From the sequence record PV660457: 52,748 bases of DNA; one strand, given 5' to 3'. The stretch comes from Escherichia phage LF82-19. The translations under genes were made by a program, and so were the position numbers. A model generated the notes under the pieces. The model ran no database searches. It was given only the letters and a program-made list of their open reading frames with translations, and was not told where the DNA came from. Each line of letters begins with the position of its first letter. Position 1 is the first letter of the stretch. Of this stretch, positions 21,116 to 36,611 are shown piece by piece.

Positions 21116-21143
21116 TTGACAAAGCGAATGAACCGCGTATACT
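21116..21143 (+). promoter_or_regulatory. strong sigma70-like early promoter
   Basis: TTGACA - 16 nt - TATACT, about 35 nt upstream of the exonuclease gene. Confidence 0.55.
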
Positions 21144-21176
21144 CAGCCACATCAACCACAACTGAGGAATAAAGTG

Positions 21177-22232
21177 ATGAATCCAACAAGACCTGAATCA
21201 GATTTTTTCTGGTTCACCAGCGATAAAATGCCGAACGATTTTTACCACGACAAAGAGGCATGGACTTTTGATTTCGTATCAGGCTCCAGCCTTTGCGACA
21301 TTCACCAATCGTCACCCGCTTCATGGTTCTTCGCCAAAAACGAGATCACAAAGGCGCTTGAGTTTGGTACTCAGTCACACACCAACTTTGAATCGAAGTC
21401 GCTGTTTGATGCAACGTATCGACGCGCACCAGCCCCGGAAGACTTCGAAAACTTGATTACGTCTCAGGCAGCGCTGGCTACGAAGTTGAAATCATTCGGC
21501 CTGACTGGTACAAGCGGGAAGCAATATCCAGAGCTGATCAAAATGATGGTTGATTGCGGTGAAGATCTTAACGTGTTGTGGCTTATTGATATGATCGCAC
21601 AGTGCCAGGCTTGGGCTGATGGCGTTGAGTTGGTCAAGGCTGAGGATTACGACAAGTGCAAGATGATGCGCGCCGTTCTGGAATCAGTGCCGGAATACGC
21701 AATGATGATGGAAAGCCCAACGGCAATGCACGAGCTTTCATTGTTCGGAAAGATCAGCGGCGTTGACGTAAAAGTCAGACTTGACTACGTTGACACGGTT
21801 ACTGATCCAAACCTCATTCGTCATTTTGGGTACGATCCAGAGCTACACCCTGAAATCATTGTGATTATGGACTACAAAACGACGAGCAGCGCCAACCCGG
21901 CAGATTTTGACCGAAAGGCATTCGATCTTGGGTATTATCTGAAGATGGCATTGCAGCGTGATTTATTCGTCAAAGTGTACGATGAGAAGCGCCCCGTTTG
22001 CTTGGTTCTGCTTACACAGGAAAAGAAAGAGCCATTCTTGCCACTTGGAAGGCCAATGACGCGCGAGCAGCTTCTTTTAGGCCGCAAGCAGTATATGGGT
22101 GTCATTCACACTTACTCGATCTGCAAGGAATCAAACGTTTGGCCTGGCTATGCAAACGGCGCTCCTTTCGTTAGCCTTGAAACGCCTGACTACATCAAGC
22201 GCCAGCATAAGGATATTTTCGGCGGAGAGTAA
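21177..22232 (+). CDS. PD-(D/E)xK-type exonuclease (putative recombination exonuclease)
   Basis: ATG 21177 with RBS GAGGAA; D ... IMDYKTT motif resembles D-(D/E)xK; adjacent to annealase and SSB. Confidence 0.45.
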   Translation: MNPTRPESDFFWFTSDKMPNDFYHDKEAWTFDFVSGSSLCDIHQSSPASWFFAKNEITKALEFGTQSHTNFESKSLFDATYRRAPAPEDFENLITSQAALATKLKSFGLTGTSGKQYPELIKMMVDCGEDLNVLWLIDMIAQCQAWADGVELVKAEDYDKCKMMRAVLESVPEYAMMMESPTAMHELSLFGKISGVDVKVRLDYVDTVTDPNLIRHFGYDPELHPEIIVIMDYKTTSSANPADFDRKAFDLGYYLKMALQRDLFVKVYDEKRPVCLVLLTQEKKEPFLPLGRPMTREQLLLGRKQYMGVIHTYSICKESNVWPGYANGAPFVSLETPDYIKRQHKDIFGGE

Positions 22233-22274
22233 TAGCACTAAAAGCTAAACAAAAGCGGTGATGTTTGGTATAAT
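22233..22274 (+). promoter_or_regulatory. palindrome variant TAGCA-N5-AGCTA plus hairpin with TATAAT
   Basis: TAA-TAGCACTAAAAGCTA, 21 nt, TATAAT inside hairpin AGCGGTGA ... TCACCGCT. Confidence 0.45.
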
Positions 22275-22311
22275 CACCGCTCAATCAAACGAACGAAAAG
22301 AGGCATAAGCA

Positions 22312-22971
22312 ATGCGAACTTCAGAAAGTATTATCAATGTTTCAAAGGCTCTCATCGAGGCGAAAAAGAAATTTGCCATCGCCAAAAAATCCGGTTTTAA
22401 CAAACACCTCAACTCCCATTATTCAAACCTGACGGATGTATTGGAGGCGATCGAGCCAGCGCTGAAAGAGCTTGATTTGATGGTTATTCAGTCAAACCTT
22501 GAAAGCACGACAGATAAGGTTATGCACATCGAAACGCTGATCCTTCATACATCCGGCGAATGGCTTGCATTCCAGTACAACATGCCTATAGAGAAAATCC
22601 AGGCTCAGGCATACGGCTCAACAACATCATACGGGCGACGTTATGCACTTTGTGCCGCGCTCAGCATCACTCAGAGCGACGACGACGCAGAGATCGCGAA
22701 ACGCACCGCGTCGGATTACAAAAAGCTGGTAGCAGATTGCAACGATATCGAGGCGCTTGGAACCATTTACCAAAGTGCCAAGCAATCACTCGGAGCGGCA
22801 GAGTGGAAAATTGCAGAGGAGCATTTGCGCAAACGCAAAGCAGAATTGCAAGCCGGAACGGCGCGAGGATTTAACCCACCTCAAAAGCAGGAAGCGCCAA
22901 AGAAACAAAATCAGGTTGAAGAGAAGCCACAACATCCGGTAGACTCTCAAAACATCGAAGACTTTAACTAA
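22312..22971 (+). CDS. single-strand annealing protein (ERF-like, putative)
   Basis: 219 aa between exonuclease and SSB; YGRRYAL segment; Lys/Gln-rich C-terminus. Confidence 0.45.
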   Translation: MRTSESIINVSKALIEAKKKFAIAKKSGFNKHLNSHYSNLTDVLEAIEPALKELDLMVIQSNLESTTDKVMHIETLILHTSGEWLAFQYNMPIEKIQAQAYGSTTSYGRRYALCAALSITQSDDDAEIAKRTASDYKKLVADCNDIEALGTIYQSAKQSLGAAEWKIAEEHLRKRKAELQAGTARGFNPPQKQEAPKKQNQVEEKPQHPVDSQNIEDFN

Positions 22972-23012
22972 ACCAAAGGGGGCGAAAGCCCCCTCACTAA
23001 CAGGAAATCAAA

Positions 23013-23498
23013 ATGCCGCACATCATCACAGGTGAGATCAAAAAAGCCCCGTACACCAAAGACGGAAGCAACAATAACGGGCGATGGAAAATGTACATTG
23101 TCGATCTGAGTGAGCGCATGAAAGTGCGCAACCCTGACACACAGGCCGATGAAGTTGTTTACACAAACTACAAGGCAACCTTCTTTGCAAAAGAAAACGT
23201 CATGCAGTGGTACGATGAAGCGTTCCAGGTTGGCAAGGTAATCAGCGTAACGTGTGACACGCTGCAAATCACCAGCCGAGATCACAACGGCAATACGTAT
23301 CTTACGGCTGAAATGATCCGGCCTCAACTGACCTTCAGCCAGCGAGAGGCTCAGCAGCAGGGATGGGGGCAACCACAGCAGCCGCAAGGCAATCAGCAAC
23401 AAAGCCAGCACAGACCACCACAGCAGCGACCACAGCAGCGACCACAGCAGCAACAGCCACAGCAGGGAAATCAGTTTGACGATGACATTCCATTCTGA
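23013..23498 (+). CDS. ssb: single-stranded DNA-binding protein
   Basis: C-terminal DDDIPF acidic tip, the E. coli SSB-type tip, preceded by Gln/Pro-rich linker; OB-fold-sized N-terminal domain. Confidence 0.7.
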   Translation: MPHIITGEIKKAPYTKDGSNNNGRWKMYIVDLSERMKVRNPDTQADEVVYTNYKATFFAKENVMQWYDEAFQVGKVISVTCDTLQITSRDHNGNTYLTAEMIRPQLTFSQREAQQQGWGQPQQPQGNQQQSQHRPPQQRPQQRPQQQQPQQGNQFDDDIPF

Positions 23499-23509
23499 CG
23501 GGTAAAAAT

Positions 23510-23535
23510 AAAGGAGCCTTTCGGCTCCTTTTTTA
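23510..23535. terminator. bidirectional terminator between ssb and tail fiber
   Basis: AGGAGCC-tttc-GGCTCCT then TTTTTTATTT. Confidence 0.55.
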
Positions 23536-25752
23536 TTTCAGCAATAACGACTCAAGTTTAGCAAGGCGCTCTTCCATTTCCTCCATTCTGTTACCCATGT
23601 AAACCATAGCACAGGCCATATCAGTAAGCATGACGTTTGAATCAAGAGCTAGCGTATCGTCCTTAAATCCAGTCTCGATCTGCCTGGCAACGTACTCCTC
23701 ACCATTCTCGTTGACTCCGATAACATCTTCAAAGATCGGAGCGCCAGGGACTACTTTCACATACTGACTATCAACTTTATTCAAGTCCTGAGCAATCAGA
23801 CCGAATCTCTGTGTGTCAGATCCCTTATACTTGAACATGGTTGGGAGCCACTGCATTACGCGATCATAGCTCTCCTTTCCTTCGGTGTATTTGATATCCC
23901 ACTTAAGATCCCGGTCAGACGTTGGCGCTTTCTGGAATGTATACCCCCCATCCCATCCTCCACCCTGACCCCATGAGATAATATCTGATGATGGTGCATG
24001 GAATTCAAATCCGCGATGGTACGCACCATCACCAAGCATCTTAATTACTGCGCGAGGCCATCCGTTGTTCCCGCTAGAAATCATACCAAGAGAGGTATTC
24101 ATTCGATACCCGCCAGTTGATGTGGTTGCCCCTGAGATCAATGAAGCATATCCGGCATCATTACCCGTTACATCACCAGCAAAGAACGTACTCCCCATGT
24201 AATCATTTGGCTGCGCCCAACCTCCTTGAGTTAACTTACCAAGAAACCCCCTTGGAGAAGATATGTGACCGCCGTATGAGTTTATGAATTTAAACTCCTT
24301 CCAGTCACTTCCTTGGTTGTTCACTCCGATCTTGAAGTGATCAATATCAGTGCCACTACCGCGAACCCCCCCAATCTGCCAGTAACCAGAGTACCAGTTA
24401 CCTTGAACCAGGTTAACCCAACTATTAACAGAGCCATCACCAGCAGCGTTTTGAATCAGGATGTTTTTGTTTCCGCCACTCTGAGTTGAAACAACGATCG
24501 ATTTACCCTGCTTTGCCTCTACGTTTCCGTTTGTTGCAACCAGAGCGCCGCCGCTAATCGTTCCGACGGCTGTCAGCGATGCAACTCCGGTAATGTTCCC
24601 CGCCTCATCAAACTGATAGTAGTTCCCCTTTCCTCCAGCCGTGTTTGCCGTGTGAATCGTTGTCTTTACAACGCCGCCTTGTAGTTCATTGTAAAATCTT
24701 GAGTTTGATTGCAGCGTTGCGCCGTCAGCAGAAAGCCTTTTACTCTCAATCAGCCCCCCACTAGTTGCTGAGCCAAGTGTTGTAGCCTCCACGCCTCCAA
24801 ATCTCACCGCTTGACCCGAGCCGATACCAAGATTGTTTCTTGCTCCGTCAGCAGTTGTTGATCCAGTGCCACCAGATCCGATAGGGATCGGGATTACATT
24901 TCCGTTACTATCCTGCCACTGGAAAATCCCATCATCGCCAATCGTCAGCCTTTTTGTTCTATCTGGCGTGCTAATGTAGTTACGCGTTCCAATGTGGCGC
25001 AGCCAGTCAAGATCAAGGTTCGTCCTCGCGGCTTGTACGTCAGTAAGATCAGATAGGTTATTTGCCTTCTTTAGCTGTTCGTCAGGGTTAGCCGTTGCTG
25101 CGCGGTCTGCTTCAGCCTTGGCTCGTGCTGCATCGTCACGAGCGGCGGCGGCAGATTGCCCGGCGCTGGTTTCGCTGTTTGCTGCATTCGTCTCGCTTAC
25201 CCTGGCGGCATCCTTGCTGGCTCCGGCTTGGGTTGCGGCAACTTCGGCGGCAACGCGTTGCTGATAAGCTTGCTGGTTCTGGCTTCCGGCCTCGCTTGCA
25301 CTTTGTGCGGCGGCGTTCTTGCTTGCCTCAGCTTCGTTTGCGTTAACTTCAGTACGATCAGCATCAACGCGAACGGCAGACTGAAGATCTTTCAGCTCTT
25401 GCAGGTTAAAGTTCTTGAAGAAATCCATAGCCTCCTCGATCACAGTTTCCTTGCTTTGGTAGTAGCGCAGAGTTTCAGCCACATCTTGAGCAAGGCCATC
25501 AACAGTGATTGAGTCATGCAGCAGGATTACATAGTTCGTACCATCCGGCACAACTGCATCATCCGTTTGGATCGCTCGCATTTCCGTGTCACTCACGATC
25601 GCGGAAATAGTAACCAGCGTTAGTGGTTGAGTTAAAAACACCATCGTTGCCCCAACGCGAATCAGAGACAGCTTGTCTTGCCATTTCGTATCAACGCCAG
25701 TTACAACGCCGTTAGCGGCCAATCCCGCCGTTCCTCTACGATAAATCGCCAT
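23533..25752 (-). CDS. tail fiber with C-terminal peptidase S74 intramolecular chaperone domain
   Basis: C-terminus DRDLKWDIKY ... GLIAQDL ... LAKLESLL typical of the autocleaving chaperone domain of fibers/endosialidases; Gly/Ser/Thr-rich beta-like middle; start at ATG 25752. Confidence 0.75.
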   Translation of the reverse strand: MAIYRRGTAGLAANGVVTGVDTKWQDKLSLIRVGATMVFLTQPLTLVTISAIVSDTEMRAIQTDDAVVPDGTNYVILLHDSITVDGLAQDVAETLRYYQSKETVIEEAMDFFKNFNLQELKDLQSAVRVDADRTEVNANEAEASKNAAAQSASEAGSQNQQAYQQRVAAEVAATQAGASKDAARVSETNAANSETSAGQSAAAARDDAARAKAEADRAATANPDEQLKKANNLSDLTDVQAARTNLDLDWLRHIGTRNYISTPDRTKRLTIGDDGIFQWQDSNGNVIPIPIGSGGTGSTTADGARNNLGIGSGQAVRFGGVEATTLGSATSGGLIESKRLSADGATLQSNSRFYNELQGGVVKTTIHTANTAGGKGNYYQFDEAGNITGVASLTAVGTISGGALVATNGNVEAKQGKSIVVSTQSGGNKNILIQNAAGDGSVNSWVNLVQGNWYSGYWQIGGVRGSGTDIDHFKIGVNNQGSDWKEFKFINSYGGHISSPRGFLGKLTQGGWAQPNDYMGSTFFAGDVTGNDAGYASLISGATTSTGGYRMNTSLGMISSGNNGWPRAVIKMLGDGAYHRGFEFHAPSSDIISWGQGGGWDGGYTFQKAPTSDRDLKWDIKYTEGKESYDRVMQWLPTMFKYKGSDTQRFGLIAQDLNKVDSQYVKVVPGAPIFEDVIGVNENGEEYVARQIETGFKDDTLALDSNVMLTDMACAMVYMGNRMEEMEERLAKLESLLLK

Positions 25753-25851: not shown

Positions 25852-26787
25852 TTACTCCAGTCTGTCAATAAGAGATTGCGGATCGTATAGCCTACGCTGC
25901 ATCCCCTGGCGGAAATTGTCATTGTTCGGCAAGATTACCCTCAGATCCCGATCGTCAGCCATGCACAGGGTTTGGTAATCGGTAGACAGGCAAGCAACGC
26001 GAAGCTCACGATCTCCTTTGTATCGCCAAGCCACAATTTCAAGGTTCTCGGGCGTGAAAGTGACCCATACTTCCTGATTGGTTGCCGTCGCTACGCGATG
26101 CCCTTCGATTATGTCGCACACCAGATAAATAGAGCCAGTGCCAGCACCAAGCTTAACAACTGAACCGCGAGAATGATCGCGAGCCATAAAAGAATATTCC
26201 CCACTTTCATTAACAAACAGGATATTACACATTTCATCATCCAATCCTTCCGGTTGAGCGAGATAGCACGGATATGCATGAATAAGCGATTCTCCGCCAT
26301 TCTCGCGAGGTTTTACGCCTACAATGAATGATTCATCCAATAGGCACTCATAAACGCTTAGAGGCGTGCTGGCTCGCAATTCAGTGCGCTCCATAACAGC
26401 CATACAGGCATCGTGATCAACTTGCTTGCCAATATTGGCATCGGTTGTTCTCGCTATGCGCTTGTAAGCCTTCACGCGGTACTCTTGCGGAACCTTGCCC
26501 AAGAAGCGCCCCAGGATGTTAACCGCCTCGCTGTATGGCTCACCAGTCAGCTTCATGACCCAGCCAATGCCTTTATCGTTACCGCATGCGTTACAGATCG
26601 CCCCGCCGTCACCCTTCGACTCAAGGTTATCAGTCCAGCGGAAGCGGTCATTGCCGCCACAGTTTGGGCATGGCTGGTGTTTGCCATTGAATACGGTTGA
26701 GGGAAGAGCGCATATTGACTGCAACGCCTCGCGCCATAATCCTTTCATGTATGGCAAAACTTCCTCTTTCTGGTACATCATCGACAT
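25852..26787 (-). CDS. DNA primase (zinc ribbon + TOPRIM-like)
   Basis: N-terminal CPNCGG ... CNACG four-Cys zinc ribbon; followed by acidic-motif catalytic region. Confidence 0.6.
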   Translation of the reverse strand: MSMMYQKEEVLPYMKGLWREALQSICALPSTVFNGKHQPCPNCGGNDRFRWTDNLESKGDGGAICNACGNDKGIGWVMKLTGEPYSEAVNILGRFLGKVPQEYRVKAYKRIARTTDANIGKQVDHDACMAVMERTELRASTPLSVYECLLDESFIVGVKPRENGGESLIHAYPCYLAQPEGLDDEMCNILFVNESGEYSFMARDHSRGSVVKLGAGTGSIYLVCDIIEGHRVATATNQEVWVTFTPENLEIVAWRYKGDRELRVACLSTDYQTLCMADDRDLRVILPNNDNFRQGMQRRLYDPQSLIDRLE

Positions 26788-27393: not shown

Positions 27394-29463
27394 ATGAAAA
27401 TCAAGAGCATCAAGAAGCAGATTGAGGAGTTAGGCGAGGATAAGATCGCAGAGCTTCAAAAGAAATTCACTTTTGGTGACATTGTTCCTTATGCGTATCA
27501 GTGCGTCATGTACGACGAGATCGCAAAGCGCATTTCCGCATACAAACACCCATTCTTTGTTAAGGCTTCCGTGTCGGCTGGCAAAACAGTTGGGTTTGCC
27601 ATGGTGGCGGCGCGGTGCAGGGAAATGACTAGCGCAAAGTTTCCAAAGGGTTTATCAATGGCAATCCTCGCTCGCCAGGGTGAGATCGTATCTCAGGATA
27701 GCCAGGAGCTAACAAACTTCGGCGTGCCGAATAGCGTTTACTGCGCCGGGCTTGGTACTAAATCTGCATACTTCCCGATCGTCGTTGGCTCTGAGGGTTC
27801 AGTTGCAAACGGGCTTTTCAAGGCTCTCGGAGACTTCGCGCCAATGGTTGTCGGCATCGACGAATGTCACCAGGTGGATTGGGAAGACCTTGCAGACTCG
27901 ATCGAGAAGAACGAAAGCTATGAGGAAATGAGCAGACCAAAGGATGAGGCTTACATGATCAATGGCGAAGTAGTCGATCGCGGGTTGAAGATATCAAGCC
28001 TCATGGAAACCCTGGGAACAGTTGCACCAGGTGCCGGGCGCTCTCAGTACACGATAATCATTCGTGAGTTGCAGCGTCGATGCCTGGAAGTTCACGGAAA
28101 GGAACTACGCATATTCGGCATGACTGGTTCAGAGTTTCGCGGCACAACTCCGATCCTTGTTGAGAATATGAAACTCAAAGGCTTCTGGCGCGAGCAGGTA
28201 ACGAACATTGATACGAACTACCTCATTGAGTTTGGCTCGGTTGTTCCAACCGTCTTCGGCTCAACTGGCGGGTTAGGCTACGATCTGGAAGAGTTCAAAG
28301 CGTCAAGCGAAGATGGAACAAAAGACTTTGACGCGAAAGTAATGAAGAAGATGGAGGAGAAGATCCACAAGGATGCTTCCATGACGGCAAGAATTATGGC
28401 GGCGGTTGTGGAGGAAGCGAAGAAGCGAAACGGCGTTCTAATTACTTGCTCAGGGCAACGACACTGTAAAGAGGCGGCTAGTTACCTGCCTGAAGGCTCA
28501 ACGTATGCGATCATTACTGAGAAGACCGGAACGAAACAGCGCCAGCAAATCCTTGATGATGCAAACCAGGGAAAGATAAAGTACATCTTCCAGGTTGTGG
28601 CATTGACGACTGGCGTTAACGTGCCGTTTTGGGATTTCTCCGTGATACTCCGTAAGATTGGCTCTCTCACATTGCTGATACAGTTGCTTGGGCGCGGAAT
28701 GCGACTTTTAAAGGCGTGGCAAATCGCAATGGGGATGGTGAAGACAGATCACCTTGTTTGGGATTTTGCCGGAACTATGGACGAATTAGGCCAACTTTAC
28801 TTTGACCCGATTCTTGAGGAAGCTCAGTATCAACGCCGTTTCGACTCGAAGAAGGAGCCTAAAAAATGCCCTATTTGCGGTCATGAAAACAGTTTCTTTG
28901 CTCGTCGCTGTATCAGTCGGGATTTGAACGGAAACAGATGTGAGTATTTCTGGAAGTCGAGAACGTGCGAGGATCAGGTTGACGATCGAACCGGGAAAGT
29001 TATTGTGAAGGGTTGCGGTGTTCAAAATGATGTTGTAGCTCGAATCTGTAGGGGTTGTGATGCTAGCCTAACAGATCCCAACGCCAACTTAACCGGGAAG
29101 GCGTACACAAAAAACGACTGGTGCCAGGTTCTCAGCTTTGAGGTTGGGCTTACCAAAAACCAGACCGGGATCATTTATAAATATCGCTTGCGTGATATGC
29201 TCGGAGAGGAGTTTAACGCATACGAGAAGTTTTTCCCTGAGTCTCAGGCTCAGGTATGCCACACGATATGGAAAACAAAAGGCGTGCTTCCACACGTTCA
29301 CGATTCGAAAGTGGCAAAGCTTATGGCAGCATACAGGAGCGCGCGCCTGATCTTACAAAACGCGCACCACATCGCGCACCCGGTACGGGTTACGCATCGC
29401 AAAAACGCAAAGGGCGAAGATATCATTTCGCGCAAGGACTTCGGTCTTAATGAGGGCTTATGA
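27394..29463 (+). CDS. DExH-box SF2 helicase with C-terminal Cys-rich zinc-ribbon cluster
   Basis: Walker A SVSAGKT, DECH box, helicase C-terminal region, then CPICGH ... C ... C ... GCG ... CRGC cluster. Confidence 0.75.
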   Translation: MKIKSIKKQIEELGEDKIAELQKKFTFGDIVPYAYQCVMYDEIAKRISAYKHPFFVKASVSAGKTVGFAMVAARCREMTSAKFPKGLSMAILARQGEIVSQDSQELTNFGVPNSVYCAGLGTKSAYFPIVVGSEGSVANGLFKALGDFAPMVVGIDECHQVDWEDLADSIEKNESYEEMSRPKDEAYMINGEVVDRGLKISSLMETLGTVAPGAGRSQYTIIIRELQRRCLEVHGKELRIFGMTGSEFRGTTPILVENMKLKGFWREQVTNIDTNYLIEFGSVVPTVFGSTGGLGYDLEEFKASSEDGTKDFDAKVMKKMEEKIHKDASMTARIMAAVVEEAKKRNGVLITCSGQRHCKEAASYLPEGSTYAIITEKTGTKQRQQILDDANQGKIKYIFQVVALTTGVNVPFWDFSVILRKIGSLTLLIQLLGRGMRLLKAWQIAMGMVKTDHLVWDFAGTMDELGQLYFDPILEEAQYQRRFDSKKEPKKCPICGHENSFFARRCISRDLNGNRCEYFWKSRTCEDQVDDRTGKVIVKGCGVQNDVVARICRGCDASLTDPNANLTGKAYTKNDWCQVLSFEVGLTKNQTGIIYKYRLRDMLGEEFNAYEKFFPESQAQVCHTIWKTKGVLPHVHDSKVAKLMAAYRSARLILQNAHHIAHPVRVTHRKNAKGEDIISRKDFGLNEGL

Positions 29464-35024: not shown

Positions 35025-36611
35025 TTACCCCAGCAAGCGTGGATTAACGTAAATCTTATCACCGATCAGGCAAGTGTAATTCTTCTCGTCAAGCATCGGC
35101 AGCAAGTGATCTTTGATTCGTGTCATTGTTCCGGCCTGGCCTTCGAATGGTCGAACCTTGCGCGCGGCCTCGTAAAGCGCCCGAAGACCAACAACGCCCT
35201 TCCCCTGCTTTCCGCTCTTGATCAGCAAGTCAATAAGCTTGTTCATTTCTGCTGAATCGCCAGCGTGCCCGGCAGACGACGCGGAAGAAAGATAGGTCTT
35301 GCTCAGCTCGTTAAACATGATCACGGCCTCCTGCATTGTGTCAAGCTCAATCTCTCGACTCTTCGGCGCATTGCTTCCGTTTGGTGAGAACCAGTTACGG
35401 ATCACATGCAGAACCGACGCGATACGAATCGCCTGTTTATCGAACTTGCCCAGCGCACCGCGTAACATGGTGTGCGAGTATTTCCCGCCGTCTGCCAAGT
35501 GTGGCTCCATCGCCTGGCGTGCGTTGTTAAGGTACTTCATCGCGCTCTTGCTCACCGTGAGCTTAACGTCAACCTCACTCATGATGGCGTGTATCAGCTT
35601 GAAGTAATCAGCTTTCAGGCCGCCGTCAATAGGCTCGTAAGTTGACTCGCCATTGTCATTCACGAAAACACGCTCACCAAGGAATGACTTCTCACGAACC
35701 AGCAAGAAACGCTCAGAAACACCGATACCGCGCGCACCTGCATTCATGATCGCGTTGATTGTCTCGTCCTGCGCGATAACCGAAATACAACCCATAGCCA
35801 CGAATGACATGTTGTTATCAGCGTTCGCACGAGCGATAGACACGTTCCCTGCATCCCATGCTTTCAGCACAAGCTCGCTGTTTGTCTTCTTCGAACCGTC
35901 ACCATACGTCATGCCCAACAGGCTGTTAACGGATGTCGCTTCGTCCGAGATCACAGCGAAGTTGCCTTGACGGTTGTTAATGCGTGCCAAGCCTTCAGGC
36001 GTGGTATCTGAAACAGGGAAAACGATATCGCAAAGGCGCTCAAGCTTCTCTTCAAGATCCTCTTTCTCCTCAAACAGCGAGGCCATTTCAGATGGCGCTT
36101 TCTCCTGTTTCATTTCCTTCGCCAGCGCAGACAGTTTGGCGAGAATCTTTTTACGCTCACGCTTACGAGCCTCGTTGAGTCGCTCAGTCTCCGCGATCAT
36201 TGGCGCGATGGATAGCGAGTTGATTGCGGATTTCCCCGTTGATGGTGGCTGACTGGTTACAACGTAGAGCGCAGTTGGTTGTTGCGTTCCGTGATAGTCA
36301 ACCGTGAACCTACCCAGCATGGCGGCAGACACGCAACCTACAAAGTGCATATAGGCTGAAGACTCAGGGAATTGAACCGATCTCGCGGCGTTGCGTGAGA
36401 GCTTGCCGACCACATCACTATCGTTGCCCAGGGAAATAACAGGATATTTATCATTACCTGAATCAATCTCTACCGGAGCCTTCCAGAAGGATTGGGATTG
36501 ACGATATCCATTCGCATTTATGGCAACGCGGAGCGGCGGCAACCCTTCGGCCTTTGCAACCTCGATCACTTGTTCCGGCGAAAGTTTATCATCATTGAAA
36601 ATATCGAACAT
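35025..36611 (-). CDS. P-loop NTPase, putative replication helicase/initiator
   Basis: Walker A-like PPSTGKS; 528 aa; in replication gene neighbourhood. Confidence 0.45.
   Translation of the reverse strand: MFDIFNDDKLSPEQVIEVAKAEGLPPLRVAINANGYRQSQSFWKAPVEIDSGNDKYPVISLGNDSDVVGKLSRNAARSVQFPESSAYMHFVGCVSAAMLGRFTVDYHGTQQPTALYVVTSQPPSTGKSAINSLSIAPMIAETERLNEARKRERKKILAKLSALAKEMKQEKAPSEMASLFEEKEDLEEKLERLCDIVFPVSDTTPEGLARINNRQGNFAVISDEATSVNSLLGMTYGDGSKKTNSELVLKAWDAGNVSIARANADNNMSFVAMGCISVIAQDETINAIMNAGARGIGVSERFLLVREKSFLGERVFVNDNGESTYEPIDGGLKADYFKLIHAIMSEVDVKLTVSKSAMKYLNNARQAMEPHLADGGKYSHTMLRGALGKFDKQAIRIASVLHVIRNWFSPNGSNAPKSREIELDTMQEAVIMFNELSKTYLSSASSAGHAGDSAEMNKLIDLLIKSGKQGKGVVGLRALYEAARKVRPFEGQAGTMTRIKDHLLPMLDEKNYTCLIGDKIYVNPRLLG

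Follow-up and report, generated by a model that had tools for sequence, protein, structure and literature searches.

[quoted passage not shown] The region from 22000 to 24500 shows 100% identity to Escherichia phages LF82-10, -11, -12 and -40. A sigma-70-like promoter candidate lies upstream of the exo-erf-ssb block, and the block is followed by a convergent tail-fibre gene and a primase gene. The erf gene is directly upstream of ssb, and Erf is a likely phage partner of the SSB. At the site that matches the hairpin between ssb and the tail-fibre gene, phage T1 has annotated terminators. The features are summarized in Table 1.

Table 1. Features of the ssb locus and replication genes of LF82-19 (window coordinates).
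Feature	Position	Strand	Basis or remark
Sigma-70-like promoter candidate, TTGACA-16-TATACT	21116..21143	+	11/12 consensus matches; consensus match only
PD-(D/E)XK "exonuclease VIII"-like exonuclease	21174..22232 (annotated start 21177)	+	PF12684 E=9e-10; PHROG 412 E=1.9e-85; annotation
Erf-family single-strand annealing protein	22312..22971	+	PF04404 E=2.3e-23; PHROG 155
AGGA, Shine-Dalgarno-like	23002..23005	+	7 nt 5' of the ssb ATG; read from sequence
ssb gene	23013..23498	+	CDS 100% identical to XUQ13361.1 (Escherichia phage LF82-10)
N-terminal OB-fold ssDNA-binding domain (aa 1-111), predicted	23013..23345	+	family motif Y50-T51-N52-Y53, F57/F58
Gln/Pro-rich linker (aa 112-155), predicted disordered	23346..23477	+	tail pLDDT, composition, likeness to E. 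coli linker
GWGQPQQPQG motif (aa 117-126)	23361..23390	+	identical to E. coli SSB residues 135-144
Perfect 12-bp tandem repeat ACCACAGCAGCG x2.9	23417..23451	+	encodes (P)PQQR-PQQR-PQQ
C-terminal tip DDDIPF (aa 156-161)	23478..23495	+	identical to host SSB-Ct
Bidirectional intrinsic-terminator-like hairpin	23510..23531	none	between ssb and convergent tail-fibre gene
Primase (zinc-ribbon)	25852-26787	-	
SF2 helicase (Helicase_C/ResIII)	27394-29463	+	"hypothetical protein" in GenBank
DUF3987 helicase	35025-36611	-	

Several further observations were made around the gene. A strong GC hairpin, GGGGGCGAAAGCCCCC, occupies positions 22976-22995 within the 41-nt gap between erf and ssb and has a T-run on the minus strand only; it could terminate minus-strand transcription or, within the exo-erf-ssb transcript, act in mRNA processing or stability. 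An antisense ORF of 161 aa (22968-23453, minus strand), rich in Leu, Trp and Ser as the complement of a CAG/CAA-rich strand, was rejected as a gene and is regarded as a shadow ORF opposite the CAG-rich coding strand. Compared with LF82-10 (PV660453.1), the LF82-19 genome has one mismatch in the first 25.2 kb and none in the other 24.5 kb that align. The minus-strand tail-fibre gene has 55 nt (25252-25306) in place of 202 nt (PV660453.1 25252-25453), an in-frame difference of 147 nt in the 5' part of the gene, which may reflect a change in repeat copy number or in receptor binding.

Class of the N-terminal domain

The original prediction described a phage SSB whose N-terminal domain is not obviously similar to that of E. 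coli SSB. At the level of pairwise comparison and curated models, this description holds. In a BLASTP comparison with E. coli SSB, the tail alone aligns (E=0.19) and the N-terminal domain is left unaligned, and the matches of a single-sequence phmmer search of the PDB are likewise confined to the tail. A Pfam search with the LF82-19 protein and 39 family members gave zero matches to PF00436 at E<=1. The NCBIfam SSB models TIGR00621 and PRK09010 match only the tail (aa 89/110-161), far under their cut-offs.

Profile and fold comparisons, on the other hand, place the protein among the SSBs. The PHROG 44 (phage SSB) profile matches aa 2-161 with E=7e-18. A whole-length family profile searched against the PDB finds the SSBs of Klebsiella (7f2n, E=2e-12) and E. 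coli (1eqq, E=2e-9), and these matches span both the OB domain and the tail. With a profile of the N-terminal domain only, SSBs alone are found, and weakly so (yeast mitochondrial RIM1, E=0.006; Bartonella SSB, E=0.13). An AlphaFold2 model, built as a monomer from a 39-sequence alignment, has pLDDT values of 90-97 for aa 1-110 and the topology b1-b3, helix 61-70, b4-b5, which is that of SSB/PriB-type OB folds, a barrel of five strands whose b3 and b4 are separated by a helix. In the PDB, every one of the best 40 Foldseek matches is a bacterial SSB or PriB (E about 1e-4, target TM 0.41-0.56), and the named matches in BFVD are almost all viral SSBs. No gp2.5-type structure is among the top structural matches listed, and the extended OB fold of the gp2.5 type is not what the domain resembles.

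The sequence of the domain has nonetheless drifted far, with identities of about 13-16% to E. coli SSB chains and up to 22% to other top SSB matches. In the HMM alignment, aromatic residues occupy two of the four positions at which E. coli SSB stacks bases (W40, W54, F60, W88): the family-invariant Y53 faces W54 and F58 faces F60. M36 faces W40, a position where some relatives have W or F, and S88 faces W88. On the basis of the predicted model and the profile matches, the N-terminal domain belongs to the SSB/PriB class of OB folds, though strongly diverged. The assignment as a phage SSB is in agreement with the GenBank annotation, and the dissimilarity to E. coli SSB that had been described does not extend to profile and fold.

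Linker, tip and ortholog family

The C-terminal part of the protein (...QQQGWGQPQQPQGNQQQSQHRPPQQRPQQRPQQQQPQQGNQFDDDIPF; in longer form ...REAQQQGWGQPQQPQGNQQQSQHRPPQQRPQQRPQQQQPQQGNQFDDDIPF) consists of a linker and an acidic tip ending in Pro-Phe. Half of the 44 linker residues are Gln (22) and seven are Pro, and the AlphaFold model gives the ten-residue blocks of the tail mean pLDDT values of 52-59 and no secondary structure, as expected of the disordered Gly/Gln/Pro-rich linkers of bacterial SSBs. The last six residues, DDDIPF, are the last six of E. coli K-12 SSB (read from NC_000913.3), so the tip was correctly recognised as the host type. The linker had been described as a low-complexity QQ/PQQRPQQ tract; its Gln content and its 12-bp tandem repeat bear this out, but the tract is more than filler, for it also carries GWGQPQQPQG. 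Alignment with the E. coli C-terminus thus extends the likeness beyond the tip to this motif and to the order of residues in the linker. When the last six residues are removed, the linker scores z=6.3 against the E. coli linker relative to composition-preserving shuffles.

The DNA beneath these shared peptides differs from that of the host at silent sites. For GWGQPQQPQG, 24 of 30 nt are identical between phage and E. coli, and all six differences fall at third codon positions, so that six of the ten codons differ synonymously from E. coli ssb. For the block encoding FDDDIPF and the stop codon, 22 of 24 nt are identical and the two differing sites are synonymous. Identity of the peptides together with synonymous differences in the DNA indicates that the peptide is under selection and makes recent copying unlikely.

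The N-terminal domain was found by tblastn in 1059 phage records; nearly all of the genomes listed are of about 44-52 kb and belong mostly to Klebsiella, Escherichia and Vibrio phages. A phmmer search with aa 1-110 among 1.84 billion cluster representatives found only 43 clusters at E<=0.001, which marks a narrow family. Across the 120 best-scoring homolog clusters, the protein ends in IPF in every case, in DDDIPF in 113, and has Phe at position -7 in 117, with a linker of 27 to 43 residues. FDDDIPF is near-invariant across proteins whose OB domains are merely 40-60% identical. Repeat length varies among relatives as had been anticipated: four close homologs (P0001-P0004; 88-91% identical to the LF82-19 SSB and 151-157 aa long compared with 161) have indels essentially confined to the QQR/PQQ tract, and the OB domain, GWGQPQQPQG and QQGNQFDDDIPF carry single substitutions at most. 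The tract therefore acts as a slippage-prone spacer.

The LF82-19 SSB is an ortholog of T1 ST27 by similarity (43% identity, E=1e-28) as well as by position, and a member of a widespread T1-like family (Drexlerviridae and relatives). ST27 likewise follows exoVIII and Erf, precedes a convergent tail fibre and primase, and has a Q-rich linker and an FDDDIPF end. In contrast to the LF82-19 SSB, it has 140 aa, was deposited as "hypothetical protein", and has a linker without GWGQPQQP, whose residue order is not similar to that of host linkers (z about 0). The conservation of the tip in the best 120 clusters, together with its presence in the T1 ortholog, argues that the host-type tip is not a product of chance. 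A literature search for the SSB of T1 and the Drexlerviridae, or for their dependence on host polymerase, yielded nothing usable.

Some members of the family end differently or are built differently. The ssb of Vibrio phage K371a (OZ196355.1; L006, about 880-930) stops after ...ADFDDD; 10 extra nt (TAGCCTCGGC) follow the DDD codons and precede a ATCCCATTTTAA (IPF-stop) that is itself intact. Either the tip is naturally absent from this SSB or the assembly is in error. Three distant relatives (P0145, P0155, P0162) lack the acidic IPF tip and share a C-terminal module of about 30 residues, W-V/I-x2-I-...-I-x-D-x2-Y-x-A-x-I-x2-L-L, which suggests that the same OB domain can carry a different C-terminus for partner binding. 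Residues 41-95 of the OB domain are matched repeatedly in two other, long proteins, in 11 stretches of P0123 (1344 aa) and in 7 of P0138 (299 aa), and both carry repeated YHDHEYLFGKVLSVEC-like units.

Proposed roles and origins of the tail

The LF82-19 protein is quite probably a phage SSB of three-part bacterial build that makes use of its host-identical tip. It would be expressed together with the exonuclease and the annealing protein Erf, whose genes lie upstream, and would coat phage ssDNA at replication forks and recombination intermediates, where its tip could dock onto the usual readers of the host SSB-Ct. At least 17 partners are documented for the tip of E. coli SSB (PMC7145534). No DNA polymerase is found among the annotated genes of the LF82-19 genome, in which no unassigned ORF is big enough to encode one. 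Because the phage has a primase and helicases and lacks a polymerase, chi, a subunit of host DNA polymerase III, is probably the key docking partner. From gene content and older T1 genetics, T1-like phages probably depend on host Pol III, and this dependence would be a direct reason to keep a tip that fits chi and other readers of the SSB-Ct. The linker would drift in length by repeat slippage while the host-linker motif GWGQPQQPQG is kept. The original prediction that the phage SSB recruits host SSB partners or competes for them is plausible on these sequence grounds; it fits the near-invariant tip, the missing polymerase gene and the precedents of SPP1 G36P and HK620.

The tip could instead serve mainly phage-encoded clients, e.g. 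Erf, the exonuclease, the primase and the helicases, in which case identity with the host tip would be inherited and not needed for host contacts. This is possible, although doubtful as the main explanation. In its favour, ssb stands third in the exo-erf-ssb block, the HK620 SSB needs its last six residues to bring the phage annealase Sak4 to SSB-coated ssDNA (PMC5928155), and the tail of T7 gp2.5 binds the phage polymerase and helicase (PMC13402713). However, SSB tips that serve phage clients drift from the host sequence, as NDYPPF in HK620 does, whereas FDDDIPF has stayed near-invariant over OB domains of much lower identity, as conserved host pockets would impose. The two uses are not exclusive of each other. 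Gene position and the HK620 precedent make it likely that the SSB docks onto the phage's own recombination and replication proteins as well as onto host proteins.

A different question is where the tail came from, and the tails of relatives bear on it. The SSB terminus QYNEPPMDFDDDIPF, searched in genomes as a degenerate DNA pattern, occurs in at least 120 genome stretches. Among the matches listed, almost all are from Vibrionaceae, the few others including two Psychromonas MAGs and three MAGs or isolates that lack a genus name, so that the terminus is essentially a Vibrionaceae signature among these matches and SSB linker ends may serve as lineage markers. In the same search, QYNEPP before the tip emerged as a Vibrionaceae hallmark. 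QYNxP is found in the tails of three Vibrio phages of the family and of two uncultured relatives whose N-termini match, and in none of the 120 best-scoring (enterobacterial-type) clusters; two of the three Vibrio phages also carry MGGQ...QQQQGWGQPQQPQQ blocks. The three Vibrio phage tails score z 5-9 against Vibrio SSB linkers and 0.5-4.3 against the E. coli linker. A metagenomic relative on a 757-bp contig (P0128) has an exact 14-residue block, PAQQAAPQMAPAYQ, in common with Psychromonas SSBs (z=11). Tails in relatives therefore appear, with moderate confidence and as judged from sequence comparison, to track host lineage, a pattern that fits old or recurrent exchange with host ssb and selection for mimicry alike.

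Two tentative proposals follow this pattern. The first, for which the odds are rather against, holds that linker and tip form a separate module that tracks the host SSB tail as the OB domain diverges freely. Vibrio phage tails carry the Vibrionaceae-type GWGQPQQPQQ...QPQYNxP, the marine relative a Psychromonas-type block of 14 residues, and LF82-19 an enterobacterial GWGQPQQPQG(G)NQ that on this view is under purifying selection. If true, this would mean recurrent capture of host ssb tails or selection for linker mimicry, and SSB linker motifs, usually seen as mere spacers, would hold a sequence-specific function that a virus must copy.

The second, also somewhat unlikely, is that the phage OB domain took linker and tip from a host ssb by recombination and that such swaps recur with host change. 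The tail resembles the host protein more than the folded domain does, whereas the opposite is usual, and the preference of the Vibrio phage tails for Vibrio linkers, the distribution of QYNxP and the Psychromonas block of P0128 all speak for an exchange. Against it, LF82-19 has no sign of recent transfer, with only short ssb matches and the synonymous codon differences described above. Its linker scores about alike against E. coli and V. splendidus (z 6.3 and 6.0), DNA identity between Vibrio phages and hosts is merely 70-89% over 40-170 nt of CAG/CAA-rich sequence, and convergence under shared constraints is an alternative source of the likeness. Recent capture of the tail from the host was considered separately and rejected. 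The tail region has zero blastn matches in 5,426 E. coli genomes with the low-complexity filter on, and unfiltered blastn against K-12 ssb finds a 24-nt match at the tip, one 11-mer and nothing longer.

A role mainly as competitor or decoy is improbable. Host-type tips, displayed in large number on phage DNA or free in solution, would in that case titrate host SSB-interacting proteins and so shut down host replication and repair or protect phage DNA ends. Identity of the tip would permit such competition, and SPP1 G36P inhibits the host replisome even at saturating host SsbA (PMC3561973); since a phage SSB is able to poison a host replisome, competition is a conceivable alternative. A decoy, however, would not require a conserved OB domain with retained ssDNA-contact aromatics, and nothing at the ssb locus points to one in a family that is syntenic with recombination and replication genes. 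Finally, that the ssb ORF is spurious, or a compositional artefact of CAG-rich DNA, is refuted by the homologs in phage records, the confident fold prediction, the Shine-Dalgarno sequence, the terminator and the conserved synteny, although the opposite strand holds a mirror ORF of equal length.

Significance and comparison with known systems

The ssb of LF82-19 is an ordinary phage SSB homolog that keeps the host SSB-Ct, already named SSB in GenBank and with well-studied analogues. What is less ordinary is that the folded domain has diverged past curated detection while the disordered tail stays host-like, and that tails of Vibrio and Psychromonas-type relatives seem to go with the SSB linkers of those hosts. 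For annotation, T1 ST27 (still "hypothetical") and the LF82-19 protein are bona fide SSB-class proteins even though Pfam is blind to their OB domain. A phage that lacks a polymerase and has its own SSB with the exact host docking tip provides a compact example of plugging into the host replisome. The tail can serve as a handle for pull-downs, and ssb may be a trigger or a target of defence systems that sense SSBs. The presence of GWGQPQQPQG in both host and phage, together with the lineage-specific linker blocks, offers a natural experiment on linker sequence versus composition.

The closest comparison is with the SSBs of E. coli and other gammaproteobacteria (1EQQ, 1EYG; Klebsiella 7F2N), which have the same build of OB fold, Gly/Gln/Pro-rich disordered linker and acidic tip. 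GWGQPQQPQG and the FDDDIPF terminus are identical in the E. coli and LF82-19 proteins, and aromatic residues stand opposite W54 and F60. The differences lie in the linker of LF82-19, which has much more Gln, less Gly and no PSNEPPM before the tip, and in its OB domain, which PF00436 and TIGR00621 do not recognise.

Among phage systems, the gene for G36P of the Bacillus phage SPP1 likewise follows those for a 5'-3' exonuclease and an annealing protein, and G36P has a host-like C-terminal tail. The SSB of this exo-SSAP-SSB operon works with host polymerases, and SPP1 replication reconstituted in vitro needs an SSB with its C-terminal tail (PMC3561973). G36P is 48% identical to host SsbA throughout and is therefore an obvious canonical SSB, whereas in the LF82-19 SSB only the tail is recognisably host-like. 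The HK620 SSB, like that of LF82-19, is a distant SSB homolog encoded beside a phage annealase; its tip has drifted, and its partner is RecA-like Sak4 instead of Erf. SSBs of the T7 gp2.5/SECphi4 type share with the LF82-19 SSB an OB fold and an acidic tail ending in Phe, and their tail mediates protein contacts, as that of LF82-19 probably does. The SECphi4 SSB used in Retron-Eco8 trigger studies has at least 186 aa and is of the gp2.5 type, a different family, so the Retron-Eco8 trigger results are not directly transferable to the LF82-19 SSB.
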